Source: an uncultured Planctomycetota bacterium (GTDB lineage: Bacteria > Planctomycetota > Phycisphaerae > Tepidisphaerales > Tepidisphaeraceae). Taken from it: 64,000 nucleotides of DNA. Made by a program: the position numbers and the translations under genes. Where the stretch lies: positions 864,001 to 928,000 of the forward strand of contig CAWJEN010000005.1 of assembly GCA_963841915.1 (NCBI GenBank). The letters run 5' to 3'. Shown in pieces: positions 1-48,781 of this stretch. The notes beneath the pieces are model-generated. The model had not been told where the DNA came from, made no database searches, and saw only the letters and a list, made by a program, of their open reading frames with translations. The stretch's first letter is position 1. Each line of letters starts with the position of its first letter.

Positions 1-1
1 A

Positions 2-655
2 AGCCTGTTCGACCACCTCGACACGGGCCGCTACACCATCCTGCCCAACACCGCCGGCTGCTTCAGCGCCGACGACGCCGTCCGCGTCAGCCTGCTCGGC
101 CGCGAACTGCTCGAAAAACAAGGCAACGCCGGCGCGGGCTGGGTCAAACTCGAGGTGCTCGGAGACAAGAAGACCCTCCTGCCCGACCCGCACGGCACGC
201 TCGAAGCCACGAAGGAACTGGTGAAGGAGGGCTTCACCGTCCTGGCCTACACGAGCGACGACCCGATCGCGGCCCTTCGCCTCAAGGAGGCCGGGGCCGC
301 CAGCGTGATGCCCGCCGGCAGCCCGATCGGCAGCGGCCAGGGCGTGCTCAACCCGCTCAACATCAGCCTCTGCCTCGAACTGCTCAAGGAGGGCGACGCG
401 AGCTACCCCGTGATCGTCGATGCCGGCGTCGGCACGCCCAGCGACGTCGCGATCGCCATGGAGTGCGGCGCCGACGGCGTCCTGCTCAACACCGGCATCG
501 CCCACGCGACCGACCCGGTCACGATGGCCACCGCCATGCGCCACGCGCTGCTCGCCGGCTACCACGGCGCCCGCGCCGGCCGCATCCCGAAGAAGCGCTA
601 CGCGACGGCCAGCAGCCCGATGCAGGGGACGATCGGGTACATTCCGGGGGAATGA
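2..655 (+). CDS. thiG: Thiazole synthase, 5' truncated by the window edge
   Basis: Frame open from the window start: [76 protein letters not shown]. Confidence 0.97.
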
Positions 656-723
656 GTGCGGTGTTGAGCGCGACCATCTTTGTCGCAGCGTCAAAGGCTG
701 GAACGTGATGTGCGGAGAAAGCG

Positions 724-1203
724 GTGTTCCAAATTGGCTACATCCTCAACGGTTCCGGATGGGCGACTGCTTCCGTCAGCGACGGAGACGCCTCGATCGA
801 CATGAATGTCTCGTATCTGAGTGATGGTCTTGGTGACTTTGCACGCGCCGCGCGAGGGACCCTCCGCGGCATGAACGAGACGACGTTCAACTTTGAACAG
901 GAACCGGGGGAACATCGGTTCATCGTGACGCGGGAAGGCGGCAATGTGCAAGTTGAGATCTATCGGTTTGCCGACACCTTCTCGCGTTCGCGAGCGGGTG
1001 AGCTGGTCATGGTCGCCAGATGCACGCTTCGGGAGTTCGCGAACACGTGCATTAACTGCCTACGCCACGTCTTGGATGAGCACGGGGAAGCGGGCTACCG
1101 CCAAATGTGGAAGAGTCACGACTTTCCGATCCGGGAGTACCGTGATCTGCTGTCGCTCCGACGCGAATTGCCATCGGTGGAGGATGAGGTGAGTTCGGGA
1201 TAG
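724..1203 (+). CDS. Hypothetical protein, 159 aa (array cargo 1)
   Basis: Clean ORF with GGAG upstream of GTG; globular-looking sequence (GSGWA...SYLSDGLGDF...FEQEPGEHRF); composition less GC-rich than thiG. Confidence 0.8.
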   Translation: MFQIGYILNGSGWATASVSDGDASIDMNVSYLSDGLGDFARAARGTLRGMNETTFNFEQEPGEHRFIVTREGGNVQVEIYRFADTFSRSRAGELVMVARCTLREFANTCINCLRHVLDEHGEAGYRQMWKSHDFPIREYRDLLSLRRELPSVEDEVSSG

Positions 1204-1210
1204 GCCTCAG

Positions 1211-1557
1211 CCCAGCTTACAACTGATGGCGGACGCCGAAGGCGGCGAAGCGGGTCCGCTGCCCCGCATGACGACCACCCCCACCACCCCCACCACCCCG
1301 GAGCACGACGCCCGCATCGCGGGGATGACGTTCGCCGCCGCCGATCCGCACGACGTCGCGAAGGTCGAGACGAAGGGCCGGACGGTCGCGGAGCGGCGCG
1401 AGGTTCTCGCCCGGCCGAACGGCCACGCCGAGGCCGACCTGCGGCGGCTGAAACGCAGCGAGGCCACGCCGCCCGCGCCGGCCGCATCCCGAAGAAGCGC
1501 TACGCAACGGCCAGCAGCCCGATGCAGGGGACGATCGGGTACATTCCGGGGGAGTAG
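1211..1557 (+). repeat. Spacer unit 1: REP arm remnant + DUF2200 5' remnant + copy of thiG 3' end (1464-1557)
   Basis: 1464-1557 matches thiG 562-655 with 5 mismatches by manual alignment; 1268-1450 translates to MTTTPTTPTTPEHDARIAGMTFAAADPHDVAKVETKGRTVAE, resembling the DUF2200 N-terminus. Confidence 0.9.
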
Positions 1558-1559
1558 CA

Positions 1560-1916
1560 ATGACATCGCTCCAAAATGCTTCAGCTTCAGAAGAAGGCGT
1601 CATTGGTTCCGATGCGGCGCGGCGTATGTTTCTGATCGCGGTCGTGACCATTGTGGCGACACCAATATGGCTTTTCCTTTACCCGTCGCTCGTGAGTAGC
1701 CTGCCGCGTCCCATGCAAGGTGAGGCGGTACGCGTCCCATTCATTCTTTGCGCTGCCGCGTACCTGCTTGTTCCCGTTTTGCTTCCAGCACTCACATTGC
1801 GTCGCCCCTCATCACGCGTGCTCTGCCTGATCGTCCTCACTGTACTTGCTCTCATCTGGTACTTTGGCCTTGGCTTCGATGATCTGTTGTCAAAAGCTTG
1901 GCGACGAGGTTTATGA
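1560..1916 (+). CDS. Hypothetical membrane protein, 118 aa (array cargo 2)
   Basis: ATG 2 nt after the stop of the thiG-tail copy; about three hydrophobic helices; visibly lower GC. Confidence 0.75.
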   Translation: MTSLQNASASEEGVIGSDAARRMFLIAVVTIVATPIWLFLYPSLVSSLPRPMQGEAVRVPFILCAAAYLLVPVLLPALTLRRPSSRVLCLIVLTVLALIWYFGLGFDDLLSKAWRRGL

Positions 1917-1921
1917 GTGAA

Positions 1922-1983
1922 GTAGGGTGGGCCCCGGCCCACCATCTGGCGCGAGCGACGAGGTGGGCCGGGGCCCAACCTAC
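1922..1983. repeat. REP doublet (REPIN-like inverted pair of GTAG-type palindromes)
   Basis: GTAGGGTGGGCCCCGGCCCACC (1922-1943) and its inverted copy GGTGGGCCGGGGCCCAACCTAC (1962-1983), 1 mismatch. Confidence 0.85.
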
Positions 1984-2320
1984 AGCGGACGGCAGACGCC
2001 GGACGCGGCGGCGATGCTAATCTGCCCCGCGTGTCGACCACCCCCGCCACCCCGGAGCGCGGCGTCCGCGTCGCGGGGATAACATTCGCCGCCGTCGATC
2101 CGCGCGATGCGCGCGAAGGTCGAGACGAAGGGCCGGACGGTCGCGGAGCGGCGCGAGATCCTCGCCCGGCCGACCGGCCACGCCAAGGCCGACCTGCGGC
2201 GGCGGATCCGCAGCGTGGCCACGGCGCCCGCGCCGGCCGCATCCCGAAGCAGCGTTACGCGACGGCCAGCAGCCCGATGCAGGGTGGTGGGGGGACGATC
2301 GGGTGCATTCCGGGGAGTAA
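1974..2320 (+). repeat. Spacer unit 2: REP arm + DUF2200 5' remnant + copy of thiG 3' end (2219-2320)
   Basis: Collinear with unit 1; thiG-tail copy has several substitutions, a 9-nt insertion and a 1-nt deletion. Confidence 0.9.
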
Positions 2321-2380
2321 ATTCAGACACTTTATGTGTTCGAGGATGACACCTGATGGCTGAAATCAAGGCAGGTAACC

Positions 2381-2701
2381 ATGAAAGGCACCAACTTACT
2401 TCTGTCTTTTGGCGGAGCTTTCGCCCTCGGTTCTATAATTGCGACGGCCATCGGCCTTACGCTTGTTCTTCCTGCAGCACGTGAGGCGTGGCAAGTCAAT
2501 ATTGACAGCGACGCGTATAGAGGCATCCAAGGTGCAATGGTAGAGGTGGAGCAGTCCGCAGTAGAGGGCGACTGCGAAAAGGCCGCCGCTCAGCTCAAGG
2601 TGTTCAACGACCGCTTCGCAGAGTACCGTGAGGGTGGCCCAATCCCCGCAGACTGGTATCAGGACGTCATCTCTGCGCAACCGGCGAGATCCGAGCAGTG
2701 A
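2381..2701 (+). CDS. Hypothetical membrane-anchored or exported protein, 106 aa (array cargo 3)
   Basis: ATG start, N-terminal hydrophobic segment, lower GC; its stop codon overlaps the GTGAAGTAGGG REP boundary. Confidence 0.75.
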   Translation: MKGTNLLLSFGGAFALGSIIATAIGLTLVLPAAREAWQVNIDSDAYRGIQGAMVEVEQSAVEGDCEKAAAQLKVFNDRFAEYREGGPIPADWYQDVISAQPARSEQ

Positions 2702-2702
2702 A

Positions 2703-2724
2703 GTAGGGTGGGCCCCGGCCCACC
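2703..2724 (+). repeat. Single GTAG-type REP palindrome
   Basis: Identical to 1922-1943, including flanks (GTGAA... ...ATC). Confidence 0.85.
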
Positions 2725-2839
2725 ATCGGTGGCGGGCGACGTGGTGGGGGTGTCGGGGTCGGGGCGTCACAGACACGGGTTGTCCGCATCAGAATGCGGC
2801 TCAATCCGTGACACCAGGCGAGAGGCCGAGGGACTCGGC

Positions 2840-3085
2840 CGTTCGAACGTGATTCGTGCTCAATCGACAACGGAAGGAGGACCTTCGACAACGGCTTTCG
2901 ATCGTTGAATGTTTGCGGTCCAGCCTTAGATAAACGTTGTCGCACGTTGGAACACGCCGTTCGAGCCTTTGAAACCGGCGGTCGCACGTTGGAAAGCGAC
3001 GGTCGAACCTTCGAACGAGCTTTTCGCACGTTGGAACGTTTCTTTCGAAGGTTGGAAACTCACGTTCGGAGGTTCGAAAGTGCGA
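2840..3085. repeat. Degenerate tandem repeat, 21-nt period, about 11 units
   Basis: Recurrent CGCACGTTGGAA / GAACCTTCGAA cores every 21 nt; + frame reads heptads TLEHAVR AFETGGR TLESDGR TFERAFR TLERFFR RLETHVR. Confidence 0.75.
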
Positions 3086-3459
3086 GTTCTCGGACCCCGC
3101 ATCGCGTTGGCGCTGCGTCAGGGCGGTTTCGAGCAAAATCACGCCTCGACTTAAGCGGTCCGGTGGCGGGGTCGATGGCTCGGTTGGGGTGGGTCGGCGA
3201 CGATTCAACGTCCGCTTCGGCATGGCCCCCCCCACCCCCACCAACTCCACGCTCCGCGGGACGACCGCAGCCGTGACCGACCACGTGCAGCCCGTGAAGC
3301 TCGCGGCGTAGTGGTCGGGGATGAGCGCAGCTGAAACCTCATTCACTCGGCCGACCGTTGCAGGCCTGATCAGGCGTTCGACGCACGGTCGAGAGTGAGG
3401 CAAGGCCAGGCTATTCCCTGCAACATGCACGGCGGCGGCGGTTGCGGTAACGTGAACCC

Positions 3460-5631
3460 ATGGGCTTTCCGCAGTTGCTCAACCCGACAGCCGCTCTTAT
3501 CGCTGCGGCGATTGCGGTGCCCCTGCTTCTGTTGCTCTACTTCCTGAAGCTCAGGCGGTCGCCGGCTCCGGTGTCATCGACGCTTCTGTGGAAGCGCAGC
3601 GTCGAAGACCTGCAGGTCAACGCGCCGTTCCAGTGGATCCGCCGGAACCTTTTGCTGTTGTTGCAGCTTCTGGTTCTGCTGGCGTTGTTGCTGGCGCTCG
3701 CACGGCCGGTCGGTGATGCGGCTCAACAGGCGGGGGAGCGATCGATCCTGCTCATCGACCGCAGTGCCAGCATGAACGCCGATGACGGTAACGGCGGCAC
3801 GCGGCTCGACGAAGCCAAGGAGCGGGCCAAGGGCGTCGTTGACACGATGCGTCGCGGCGACCAGGCGATGGTCATTGCCTTCAGCGACGACACCGGCACC
3901 AGCCCGGTCCAGAAGTTCACCGAGTCGGCCGGCCAGATCAAGGACGCCATCGACGGCATCGAGCCGAGCGATCGCCTCACGAAGCCGGCTGCCGCCTACA
4001 AGCAGGCCAACGCGTCGTCTTCCTTCATGGACGTGCGGCTGCGGCCCGACGAGTTGCAGGCGGCGACGGTCTTCCTGTTCAGCGACGGCCGCGTGAGCGA
4101 GGCTGACATCGGCGAATTGTCGATCCGCGGCGAACTGCGGTACGAGCGGCTCGGCACGCCGACAGCGAAGAACCTGGCCGTCGTCGCGGCGAGCGTTAAA
4201 CGCAACTACGAGCGGCCCGACGAGGCGCAAGTCTTCGCCCGCGTCGCCAACTTCGGCGACACGTACGAGAAGGCGAACCTGCGGGTCAGCGTCGCAGCGA
4301 TCAACGAGGACGGGACGCTCGGCGACTTCGAACCGACGGCCAGCGGGCCGGTGCGTGTCTCGCTGCCGCCCAAGCGGTGGACGGACGCGGCGTGGCGGGA
4401 GGCGGCGGAGGAAACCAACGCCGAGGCACTCGCCGCCGCCGACCGTCAGCTCGCCGAAGACCCGCCGCGCGAAGGCGTTGATGTCCGTTTGTCGCTGCCG
4501 GTGGCGAGCGTGGTGCGGGTCGAGATCGTCGACGACCAGGGTCGTCCCGTGGAGGATGCGCTCAAGGCTGATGACGAGGCCTACGTCGTCGTTCCGCCGC
4601 CCGAGCCGTTGCGGGTGTTGCTGGTCACGCGTGGCACGTACTGGCTTCGGCTGCTCGTCGAGACGCAACGTCTTGACGACCCGAAGATCGTTTCGCCCGC
4701 CGAGTACGAAGCACTGCTCGCCGACGGCGGCGACGACGGGGCGGCCACGTACGACGTGACGATCTTCGACAACTATCAGCCGACGGCGTTGCCCGAGGCC
4801 GGCACGTTCGTCTTCAGCGGGCAGCTTCCACCGGAGGGGGCAACGGAAATCGAGGCGATCACGGGTGACGACGGCGTTGCACTCTTCTACGAAGGCAGCG
4901 GCGTCCTCGACTGGGACCGCGACCACCCGATGCTGGCAGGGCTCAACCTCAACCGTTTGTGGGCGGCAGAGGGGCGTCGGGTCCCGGTCCCGACGGCTGC
5001 TGAAATGCTCATCGAAGGTGTCGACGGTCCGATGGCCATCCTGGAGCGTCTTGGCCGCCGAACGAACCTTGTCTTCACCTTTGATCTGGCTCAAAGCAAC
5101 TGGCCACGGCACCGGACCTTTCCGATCTTCTTTTACCTGGCCTTTGAGTACTTCACACAGAGCGGCGACGTCGGGACACGCGAGTCGTTCCGCCCGGGCG
5201 AAGTCGTGGCGGTGCCTCCCGTAGCCCTGGAGCGGGCGGACGTTGAGGACGGTGTGGCGTTGCTGGGGCCGAACGGCTCGCGGCTGACGGCCCGTGTCGA
5301 TTCAACGGGGGGCCTGACGCTGGGGCCGCTGCCGACGGTCGGTTTGTACCGCACGCAGCCGCCGGTGCCGGGCTTCGAGCAGATTGCCGTCAGCCTGCTC
5401 GACGCGAACGAGAGCAACCTGCTGCCGGGCGCAACGGATCCTGGGAACCTGTCTGCCAGCGACGAGACGACCGGAGCCGCCGCCTACGCCTCGGCAGCCG
5501 GCCTGGCGGAGGACGCGTCACCCGATGATTCGGCCGTCGGCTACGCCGAATGGTGGTGGTGGCTCGTCGCCGCAGGCGTGGGAATGTTGATGATCGAGTG
5601 GTTCGTGTACACGCGGCGGGTCGGCGGGTGA
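3460..5631 (+). CDS. BatA and vWA domain membrane protein
   Basis: N-terminal BatA motif (LLLLYFLKLRR...SSTLLW), MIDAS DRSASM, C-terminal SLLDANESNL plus TM helix. Confidence 0.9.
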   Translation: MGFPQLLNPTAALIAAAIAVPLLLLLYFLKLRRSPAPVSSTLLWKRSVEDLQVNAPFQWIRRNLLLLLQLLVLLALLLALARPVGDAAQQAGERSILLIDRSASMNADDGNGGTRLDEAKERAKGVVDTMRRGDQAMVIAFSDDTGTSPVQKFTESAGQIKDAIDGIEPSDRLTKPAAAYKQANASSSFMDVRLRPDELQAATVFLFSDGRVSEADIGELSIRGELRYERLGTPTAKNLAVVAASVKRNYERPDEAQVFARVANFGDTYEKANLRVSVAAINEDGTLGDFEPTASGPVRVSLPPKRWTDAAWREAAEETNAEALAAADRQLAEDPPREGVDVRLSLPVASVVRVEIVDDQGRPVEDALKADDEAYVVVPPPEPLRVLLVTRGTYWLRLLVETQRLDDPKIVSPAEYEALLADGGDDGAATYDVTIFDNYQPTALPEAGTFVFSGQLPPEGATEIEAITGDDGVALFYEGSGVLDWDRDHPMLAGLNLNRLWAAEGRRVPVPTAAEMLIEGVDGPMAILERLGRRTNLVFTFDLAQSNWPRHRTFPIFFYLAFEYFTQSGDVGTRESFRPGEVVAVPPVALERADVEDGVALLGPNGSRLTARVDSTGGLTLGPLPTVGLYRTQPPVPGFEQIAVSLLDANESNLLPGATDPGNLSASDETTGAAAYASAAGLAEDASPDDSAVGYAEWWWWLVAAGVGMLMIEWFVYTRRVGG

Positions 5632-39971: not shown

Positions 39972-40724
39972 CAGTCTTTTTTGAAGTGAGGAACAGGCAC
40001 ACAGGAACGCCCACGGCACCATCGCCGTGTTCGTGACCGAGTGGGCTGTTCATCACTTCAAGAAGACCGCGTGCCACACGCACCGGTCGCGCCCGGACCA
40101 AGGCGGCGGTTTTCGGTCGCTCAGGACCATGCGCCGCGCCGGTGCGGGCGGCGTCGGGTTGGGGGTCTTGCGTCACGCTTCCGGCGAACGACGGGCAGAC
40201 GTTCAAGCAGGCGGCATGAAGGGCGGCACGGGTCGCCGTCTGCGGAGATCTGTGTCGGATTCTGCGCCGTTGCCACCTCCCACCTCCGACTTGAAGCACG
40301 CGGACGCAAACCATCTTCGGGAGCAGATCCCTTAGGACGACGTAAGGGGTCAGAACCTTGTCGCGGCGGTCATGACGCCACACCGGGTGTCACGATCTGA
40401 GCCGCCTTCTGAGGTGGGCGAATTTTGAAGCTGCCGCGAATCATCGCCGACACGGGTGATCCGCCTCGGAATGGACCTACACCACGGCTGGCCCCATCAC
40501 GACGAAAGTTCGGCGACGGCGACCGTCCGCACATCGCCGAACGGCGGCATGGGCTTCAAACCGTTGACGGCGTACAGCACGTTCCACATGCGGGTCCGCA
40601 CGGTCAGGAGACCGGCGTCGAGAGAAGAGGCGTCGATCACGTCGATGTCGAAGCGATGCGGCGCCCGTTGAACGGTTCGTGTCGTCATCGACGCCACCCT
40701 GCAGCCAACTGTTAAGTTGACCCA

Positions 40725-47927: not shown

Positions 47928-48225
47928 TTCAAAAAAAAAGTATCAAGAGCTGCGTGTCCGCCAATCCCGCCTCGAACGCTGAATCGAAGCCGCCGGTCGA
48001 GGCCATAATGAGAAGGCTAAGCAAGCCCTCAAACTGTTCAAACTTTCACTAAGCCTGCGAGAACGGTGGCTTACGGCCGATTACGCCACGAAGCGAACGA
48101 TCCTCGACCTCCTCTGGTCGAACTTTCGCCTCGGGGCGTAAGACTCGTTCCCGCAGTGAGAGAGCCCTTCGATGTGCTCGTCGAAGGGCTTGAACTCGCC
48201 AAAGGTCGGGCTGACAGGATTCGAT
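47928..48225 (+). pseudogene. C-terminal remnant of a large serine recombinase/integrase
   Basis: Stop- and frameshift-containing ...LSLSLRERWLTADYATKRTILDLLWSNFRL/GVRLVPAVREPFDVLVEGL... running into a tRNA 3' end; resembles tails of planctomycete tRNA-adjacent recombinases (from memory). Confidence 0.6.
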
Positions 48226-48280
48226 TCTGCGACCTCTTGACACCCAGTCAAGCGCACTAACCAAACTGCGCCACAGCCCG
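48206..48280 (-). tRNA. tRNA-Pro(GGG), degenerate and probably a pseudogene
   Basis: Cloverleaf CGGGCTG/CAGCCCG acceptor stem, CTTGA-CTGGGTG-TCAAG anticodon arm; T-arm reads GAATCGAAT instead of GGTTCGAAT and position 37 is T. Confidence 0.85.
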
Positions 48281-48334
48281 TTGAGCCGACAGATGCACTG
48301 CCGCCCCTTGGCAGATGCAGCATTTTGCGGAACT

Positions 48335-48470
48335 ATGAATGTGGCCCTTTTCGGTTCCGGCGGACGGGAGCACGCCCTCGCGTGGAAACTGTGCCAATCG
48401 CCCCGGCTCGGCAAGCTCCACGCGTGGCCAGGCAACCCCGGCATCGCAGCCGTCTCGCACAAAGTCACGT
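48335..48470 (+). pseudogene. purD: 5' fragment (about 45 codons) of phosphoribosylamine-glycine ligase
   Basis: [23 protein letters not shown]...PGNPGI, then similarity stops. Confidence 0.85.
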
Positions 48471-48781
48471 GCCGATTGATCGGACGTCGAACTTCAAAGC
48501 TGACCGATTTGGGGGACCGGACTCAGTCGCTCGACCTCCTCTACGAAGCCGTTCATAAGGGCGAGCGCATCATCGAGGCCGCGGTAGCATGTTGGGGCCT
48601 CCGTTCGCAGCGAGGCATCGTCGACGCGTGCCGTGATGTAGACCTGACGTCGCAGGTTGGCGAAGTCGAAGTTGATGGCGGCTCGCTTGGCGTCTGACCG
48701 GCTCATCGTTAGCCCGGTGCCGTGCCGCAGGCAGCATTCGATTTCTTCAACACGCTCGGTCGCGCGGACCAGCGACATGTC

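Follow-up and report, generated by a model that had tools for sequence, protein, structure and literature searches.

Integrons are made up of an integrase gene, intI, an attI site and attC cassettes. We describe here an array that resembles them in its polarity, in its small, unrelated genes of low guanine-cytosine (GC) content and in a hairpin past the stop codon. It follows the metabolic gene thiG in a stretch of 64,000 nucleotides (nt), hereafter the window, from an uncultured Planctomycetota bacterium of the family Tepidisphaeraceae (assembly GCA_963841915.1, contig CAWJEN010000005.1, positions 864,001 to 928,000). Unlike an integron, the array has no intI beside it, its hairpin is a GTAG-tagged doublet of repetitive extragenic palindromes (REPs), its units carry fragments of host genes and some of them have no hairpin. 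An attC site closing every cassette was not found (an attC model formed no part of the analysis): in several units the REP is worn or missing.

The array does not qualify as an integron; in the way it works it is akin to the sequential displacement arrays of toxin loci. For such arrays at the type VI secretion system (T6SS) loci of Vibrio cholerae, homology-facilitated illegitimate recombination is the mechanism put forward, with later spread by homologous recombination; that paper also remarks on the likeness of T6SS immunity arrays to integrons, without an integrase, and cites the orphan 3' modules of Rhs and contact-dependent inhibition (CDI) loci (Kirchberger et al. 2017, PMC5361080). As in Vibrio, a conserved anchor lies upstream, the new module stands beside it, older genes have moved downstream and there is no integrase; as in T6SS and Rhs displacement, the displaced 3' ends appear to come from other lineages. 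Unlike those systems, this array is anchored on a constant metabolic gene, which is restored without change; what is displaced is a constant thiG tail, and the cargo genes are unrelated orphans outside any toxin-immunity or secretion context, with only a weak hint of a CdiI fold in the first of them.

Insertion with duplication of an anchor has been obtained in Escherichia coli by conjugation with one-sided homology, where 56 of 60 recombinants had duplicated the anchor (109-950 bp in the 14 sequenced), which was attributed to a circle and one crossover (PMC3240628). There too, foreign DNA with one homologous end integrates and duplicates the anchor; those were single events with a laboratory plasmid and scattered lengths, whereas here the duplications are natural, repeated and clustered at 81-102 nt in one clade. 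Tandem accretion of cis-mobilizable elements (CIMEs) at the 3' ends of housekeeping genes is reviewed in PMC5704250. Like a CIME series, the array consists of tandem units devoid of an integrase, each followed by a copy of the target-gene end, with the newest next to the gene. It appears to differ from such a series in that CIMEs are decayed integrative and conjugative or integrative and mobilizable elements (ICEs, IMEs) with the attL and attR of a site-specific integrase, and neither an element of this kind nor an att arm or a single tail length came to light here; an ICE, IME or prophage with an integrase occupied the site in none of 131 thiG loci and in no viral contig.

Related processes are transformation-driven unequal crossing-over at repeats in pneumococcus (PMC3784515) and the staphylococcal lpl clusters, whose unit is described in PMC2568036 as the 3' part of one gene, a spacer and the 5' part of the next gene. 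In the main texts of the open-licence literature, no paper was found that treats thiG as a site of insertion or reports such a layout from planctomycetes. A preceding sequence-only reading knew of no described system with this layout; a lack of precedent is not supported, since displacement behind an anchor and accretion at 3' ends are both known from the systems above. We favour, with a probability of about 0.6, growth of the array by sequential displacement with imported DNA at a gene-gain hotspot, with no dedicated recombinase.

Anatomy of the array

The features are as follows, in window coordinates.

1..655, + strand: 3' part of thiG, the homology anchor (Pfam PF05690, ThiG, E 7e-76); the intact gene has 278 codons (aa) and starts upstream of the window
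562..655, + strand: live thiG tail, the 94 nt that is repeated; its left end is very GC-rich
724..1203, + strand: cargo 1, 159 aa, predicted fold weakly like the CdiI immunity protein
1203..1240, + strand: worn right arm of a REP doublet and about 15 nt of the gene head found after the same REP in the congener G001
1268..1466, + strand: stub 1, the 5' part of DUF2200 (roughly codons 1-55) in a frame that is still open, running into tail copy 1
1464..1557, + strand: thiG tail copy 1, stop TAG; 5 substitutions, 0 indels
1560..1916, + strand: cargo 2, 118 aa, hydrophobic, membrane-type; start codon 2 nt past the stop of tail copy 1
1922..1983, no strand: GTAG-tagged REP doublet (REPIN-type hairpin), near intact, of a genus-wide repeat family
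2031..2221, + strand: DUF2200 5' stub 2, frameshifted, with the same tail junction as stub 1
2219..2320, + strand: thiG tail copy 2, stop TAA; substitutions, a 9-nt insertion and a 1-nt deletion
2381..2701, + strand: cargo 3, 106 aa, with an N-terminal hydrophobic segment
2703..2748, no strand: third REP doublet, left arm and inner part, nearly identical to the REP at the same place in G001
2750..2820, no strand: copy of a second genome-wide palindromic repeat family (about 45 BLAST matches across the genome), replacing the right arm of the third REP
3460..5631, + strand: BatA/von Willebrand factor A gene, the downstream boundary; not a neighbour of thiG in the relatives

The order is thus thiG, cargo 1, a DUF2200 stub, a tail, cargo 2, a REP doublet, a stub, a tail and cargo 3. 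The core of the sequence-only reading, that the last 94 bp of thiG recur twice downstream, the nearer copy with substitutions only and the farther one with indels, proved correct: tail copy 1 is 97.8% identical to the live end over 90 nt, and tail copy 2 is 87.6% identical. The live gene ends GAA-TGA; all tail copies and four congeners have GAG before the stop. The junction that it described, of a DUF2200 5' remnant with the tail at one and the same point, was also found in both spacers; the remnant has 46% identity to intact family members and a Pfam E value of 0.0013, below the cut-off. A length of 347 bp had been given for both complete spacers. The distances from cargo stop to tail are in fact 260 and 302 nt (unit periods 902 and 755 nt), and the figure fits the alignable segments including the tail, 1210-1556 and 1973-2319, which are 82.6% identical to each other.

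Each cargo was further said to end at a REP. This is so for cargoes 2 and 3, whose stops stand 5 and 1 nt ahead of the GTAG tag, but not for cargo 1, behind which only the worn right arm survives. The trace of a third spacer past cargo 3 amounts to the left 52 nt or so of a REP doublet, with neither DUF2200 stub nor tail. These parts of the units qualify as REP/REPIN sequences by their GTAG tag, palindromic dimer and many extragenic copies, and the doublet at 1922-1983 folds with z values of -7.7 and -6.0; an Rfam match to this hairpin is a chance miRNA match only. The family has 5-63 matches in each of four congeners, mostly without cassettes. A GTAG-tagged head-head dimer spread through the genus, in genomes with Y1 genes, agrees with the GTAG-type REP dimers and REPINs that accompany REP-associated tyrosine transposases (RAYTs), but the portions of PMC3733652 and PMC6006769 used here do not describe REPs as gene-capture sites, and a REP is not required for a unit here. 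A short core common to the thiG stop and the position before the REP can be seen by eye in some units; it is absent from the cases without a REP and was dismissed. A scan for sigma-70 promoters and terminators gave nothing above chance. Past the array, an imperfect repeat with a 42-nt period occupies 2878-3093, and a low-complexity open reading frame (ORF) of no family lies at 2905-3276.

The three cargoes have GC contents of 0.58, 0.55 and 0.57, against 0.70 for thiG, and are not paralogues: the best cross blastp match among them has E 2.2. Unrelated ORFs of lower GC behind each tail, as first described, are thus real, and diverged copies from a tandem duplication, which would have spoken against that description, are not what was found. 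Cargo 1 has 21 homologues (32-69% identity), cargo 2 has three (54-65%, with a conserved C-terminus) and cargo 3 has seven (61-68%, near full length). Pfam, NCBIfam and PADLOC assigned none of the three to a family; hydrophobic segments occur in cargoes 2 and 3, and the ESM Atlas gave only unnamed, low-score clusters for cargo 3. The structure model of cargo 1 (predicted local distance difference test score, pLDDT, of 92, from 17 sequences) had as its sole Foldseek match under E 0.001 the CdiI immunity chain 4ntq_B (E 3.7e-4, template modelling (TM) score 0.47, 9% identity), a modelled likeness that we regard as a weak lead. Cargo 1 also has distant homologues (27-37% identity) in 51 named genomes, most of them Streptomyces, where flanking direct repeats are rare (2 of the 51). 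A GGAG in the last tail codons stands 5 nt ahead of the cargo 2 start, and translational coupling of the tail to this gene is therefore possible, judging by its position.

thiG ends in relatives and elsewhere in the source genome

In what follows, G000 is the source genome, G001-G004, G045 and G090 are relatives, and L numbers denote individual loci; one genome per species was compared. Three (G000, G001 and G090) of the seven genomes sharing the clade-specific thiG end have a tail copy; for G004 only 992 nt of DNA downstream of thiG is available, and G006 enters the comparison as a negative row only. The telling case is G090, in which thiG is followed by an 81-aa ORF, an 88-nt tail directly past its stop, a 116-aa ORF, a palindrome, an intact DUF2200 gene and rsmG. 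Because this genome, one of 7 of 101 family genomes with an intact DUF2200, keeps that gene behind the slot, the comparison identifies the window spacer as the ancestral downstream flank of the thiG slot. In G001 the order is thiG, a worn cargo, a REP, the head of another gene, a worn tail, a second cargo, a REP and the same gene head, which we take to be SnoaL-like (Pfam gave no match). The distal REP of G001 and the third one of the window are almost identical, in the inner part as well, and the REP has therefore been inherited in place.

A metagenome survey supplied 80 thiG loci, 40 of them with at least 1 kb downstream, and two more tails: one of 142 nt behind a 226-aa ORF (L177) and one of about 27 nt between two paralogous small genes (L154), both without a REP. 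Two further metagenome matches are not tail copies. Together with the first unit of G090, these are three cases of thiG, cargo and tail with neither REP nor DUF2200 in the unit. With tails of about 27-142 nt and no recombinase near thiG, they tell against an integron-like system having the REP as a fixed part, as the sequence-only reading had it, while its serial, polar addition of units of tail, cargo and flank at the live thiG end is supported. The comparison of relatives that it called for did reveal different cargo behind thiG. The first 450 nt past the gene fall into 55 clusters in 109 loci; the largest holds 40 of the 109, including the small gene of G002, G090 and L154. The commonest neighbour, that of this largest cluster, is an approximately 80-aa protein family (L058:592-837 and relatives) with no Pfam match, often in at least two copies nearby.

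One and the same strict test, applied to family loci other than G000 that had 700 nt or more downstream, flagged 2 of 72 thiG ends (L177 and G090), with G001 and L154 under the threshold. Among 425 other genes it flagged one, an adjacent 21-nt repeat that was not counted, leaving no true case; no P value is given because kin are not independent. In another 20 family loci, some of which overlap with those above, no tail copy was present. In a class-wide DNA search of 401 genomes a second convincing tail appeared only in G000 and G090, a weak negative with two candidates scored per genome, and a protein search of 141 family genomes found extra tails in the same two, missing the worn G001 copy. 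A strict genus-type tail pattern had 0 matches in metagenome contigs, and a looser one 0 in viral contigs, none of which carries the clade tail motif. The thiG match in Moraxella phages Mcat1/2 was rejected as an att site, being a whole host gene, at the record edge in Mcat1 (PMC4619438). In 131 loci, 44 of which extend for at least 3 kb, the 6 kb downstream of thiG yielded neither a tyrosine recombinase nor a Y1 gene, and no recombinase gene lies near thiG in G000, G001 or G090. Among listed sequencing runs, one DNA run and no RNA run contained the stretch. That run, X1, covers little of it and cannot serve to check the assembly; one of its contigs, of 327 nt, matches window 491-651 with 6 differences and then diverges from the window, and nothing covers cargo 1.

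The changes in the tails indicate what they once were. Compared with its own thiG, the L177 tail has 16 silent and 5 replacement codons, 18 of 24 changes being at third positions, and the L154 tail has 4 silent and 1 replacement; of the 4 changed codons in window tail copy 1, 3 are silent and 1 is a replacement. Tail copies end TAG, TAA or TGA, each still a stop. With changes mostly silent and stop codons that differ, these tails were formerly functional thiG ends, whether in another lineage or at an earlier time. The G090 tail copy is 97% identical to the thiG end of G000, and the live end of G090 is 93% identical to it. The two DUF2200 stubs differ at 5, 11 and 5 first, second and third codon positions and have therefore drifted without selection; private changes number 6 in stub 1, and 13 plus the frameshift in stub 2. 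Decay thus grows with distance from thiG in tails and stubs, as originally suggested, although not in the REPs. An identity of 98% in tail 1, next to spacers 83% alike, is what would result had tail 1 served as the live end up to the latest insertion, with the spacers ageing in separate lineages.

Tail lengths are about 27, 82, 88, 94, 98 and 142 nt, with differing left partners. In the close clade the tails begin 81-102 nt before the stop, with four different left partners; elsewhere they begin at -142 and about -27, and the left arms are unrelated. Three starts (G000, G090 and the fourth copy described below) are at or beside one CAC motif, and that of G001 is 4-8 nt away. The joint has no stable hairpin (z +0.8 to +1.6), on which ground a fixed hairpin att site was rejected, and the array joints are 95-235 nt from the REP.

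The fourth thiG tail of the source genome (82 nt, 93%) lies 291 kb upstream of thiG, between a pair consisting of asnS and a pilin-like gene and groEL. Behind it come a low-GC ORF of 117 aa, of membrane type, and the REP of the array (L001:4898-5443, equal to G000:C5:572897-573442), and three repeat families surround it. The exact 117-aa protein is also recorded from one short public contig. A scan for tail duplications, that is, a same-strand match of the last 60 nt at most 3 kb downstream, returned 10 of 2642 called genes. On inspection three have long, distant tail copies (thiG, C6:1398398 and C5:414835) and seven are adjacent repeats, paralogue ends or marginal. G000:C6:1398398-1401905 holds a gene whose final 185-208 nt recur (87%) at a distance of 2.1 kb downstream, enclosing three genes on the opposite strand and no integrase; at G000:C5:414835-416830 a gene tail (139 nt, 94%) and the next ORF are tandemly duplicated, adjoining repeats, presumably a duplication of toxin-immunity type.

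The search for a RAYT, HUH or tyrosine recombinase gene that had been proposed yielded two Y1 proteins, a type of protein also encoded by all five relatives tested, and four tyrosine recombinases, two of them non-Xer; none is near thiG, the nearest tyrosine recombinase being about 239 kb away. Upstream of thiG stand MreB-like, DUF58-like and other genes. The RAYT-like gene scores 52 bits against an NCBIfam cut-off of 80 and is flanked by another repeat family than the array REP. Directly upstream of it, G000:C6:1459620-1463678 forms a second cassette-like array, whose three low-GC ORFs are set between repeats of another palindromic family and a flank piece of 120-170 nt that has itself been copied; the 5' end of the RAYT-like gene recurs there as stubs, and the flank piece recurs beside the fourth thiG tail. 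At G000:C6:1470989-1472700, repeats of a third palindromic family are inserted three times in one gene, which we take to be putA, apparently breaking it. As for uptake of DNA, ComEC is present with an open reading frame, and the DprA match (G000:C5:561803-562424) is in two pieces with a frameshift or stop, which may be real decay or a sequence error.

Elsewhere in the window, 48204-48475 holds a worn tRNA-Pro copy together with the opening 140 nt of purD, which the locus at C6:277600 matches at about 95% identity. Such a piece is the usual scar of an island integrated at that tRNA, and lower-GC genes lie around it. A copy of about 330 nt (about 90%) of a gene end and the downstream repeat region at C6:276231-276968 lies at 40133-40465.

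Growth of the array and its rival explanations

Sequential displacement would start from a slot behind thiG that holds different small genes in each lineage, followed in this clade by a REP and, ancestrally, by DUF2200. A rare illegitimate joint, probably at a microhomology of 4-5 nt, would have fused this flank (at DUF2200 codon ~55) to thiG some 94 nt ahead of its stop; a piece spanning thiG end, cargo and flank may have integrated by homology at thiG on one side only, or may have closed into a circle and entered by one crossover. Once a tail copy is in the population, a donor of the form thiG-cargo-spacer-tail would be homologous to thiG along two arms. If one crossover fell within the gene body and a second joined the donor tail copy to the live thiG end of the recipient, a new unit would be inserted, thiG would stay intact, and the resident cargo, along with the former thiG end, would shift downstream by one place. 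Tail-bearing circles that are excised and then enter again would lead to an identical product. The displaced tails and stubs would then decay while cargo genes stay open, which is the pattern seen. REPs would ride along, and a RAYT may have moved the fourth tail elsewhere. Intact DUF2200 in G090, tails as former gene ends, variable tail lengths and partners, the lack of an integrase, varied neighbours, the X1 contig and an open ComEC all appear to favour this course of events.

Several observations weigh against it. With one genome per species compared, no donor or intermediate was seen, and DprA is apparently split. The microhomology at the G000 joint cannot be confirmed, as the intact G090 gene differs there, and in experiments such illegitimate events are very rare (3.5e-10 in E. 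coli, PMC3240628). The fourth tail copy has 3 silent and 3 replacement codons, that of G001 is too worn to score, tail copy 2 is decayed too, and the most worn REP is the one nearest thiG. Moreover, under uniform starts the clustering of tail starts has P 0.018, or 0.002 or less (spans of 150, 300 and 800 nt), and therefore would need a preferred site or shared ancestry. The four clustered starts may not be independent, as an array tail may be the source of the fourth copy and the DUF2200 context is found in G090 too; another idea is a survivor effect, in which long tails loop out and short ones fail to recombine.

This clustering keeps a site-specific recombinase acting in trans alive as a rival. 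In the boldest version, which we find doubtful, the thiG tail would be a dedicated, reusable, attI-like capture site with a ribosome-binding signal for the next cargo, cut at the CAC motif about 94 nt before the stop by a tyrosine recombinase or a REP-guided HUH nuclease supplied in trans, which would build polar single-gene arrays across the planctomycete clade. Tandem accretion of minimal cis-mobilizable islets at an attB about 94 nt inside thiG, by a recombinase in trans or since lost, would make the units decayed elements and the tails att scars. The tight starts, the polarity of the array, the non-Xer tyrosine recombinases of G000 and the established accretion of CIMEs at protein-gene 3' ends (PMC5704250) are in keeping with such islets; we nevertheless consider them unlikely, since the left partners are host flank pieces that differ by genome and include no conserved att arm, tails elsewhere in the family measure 142 and about 27 nt, and the joint has no stable fold. 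The 131 loci with no integrase near thiG, the viral contigs and an open-licence literature in which no paper linking thiG to an integration site was found also speak against islets. In another rival, the block of tail, cargo, REP and DUF2200 head would have been duplicated locally in tandem and the cargo of each copy then replaced like for like by double crossover in the flanks, with gene conversion keeping tail 1 thiG-like and no polar addition. The unit is indeed an exact slice of the ancestral locus, one joint is common to both spacers, and the short L154 tail is flanked by paralogous genes. Yet the silent-site divergence and differing stops of the tails point to other lineages and not to copies made in place, the cargoes have no trace of common ancestry, and a separate conversion event is needed for 98% against 83%, which makes local duplication a poor candidate.

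Capture driven by REPs and a RAYT, in which an HUH (Y1) transposase would cut and rejoin single strands near REP hairpins and copy flank pieces along with new genes, may explain the fourth tail among its three repeat families. It would also suit the presence of Y1 proteins in G000 and all five relatives tested, the second low-GC array with its copied flank and RAYT head adjoining the RAYT-like gene, and the short distances between cargo stops and GTAG tags. REPs beside stop codons are common, though (PMC3733652), and 20 REP-rich regions of congeners contained no duplicated gene tail. The REP of the array is inherited by position and far from the joints, the RAYT of G000 falls short of its family cut-off amid different repeats, and the unit lacks a REP in three cases; we think this route improbable. 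A chimeric assembly of strain variants is very improbable indeed. The genome is probably a metagenome assembly, but it has 6 contigs, the contig concerned measures 1.31 Mb, the repeats are short, 83-98% alike and have private indels, and the same layout occurs in four other assemblies. Moreover, tails fused to a DUF2200 stub cannot come from strains each with one intact thiG.

If the clustered joint were made by an enzyme, the locus would represent a new capture system. Under sequential displacement, the array would amount to integron-like stacking of genes without an integrase: after one tail copy, ordinary recombination would add genes rather than swap them. The site is unusually clean for such a study, with three generations of units, the ancestral arrangement in a relative and repeated origins across the family. 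Additive gain by homology-anchored recombination, so far inferred mainly at toxin loci, would thereby become testable at a plain metabolic gene.

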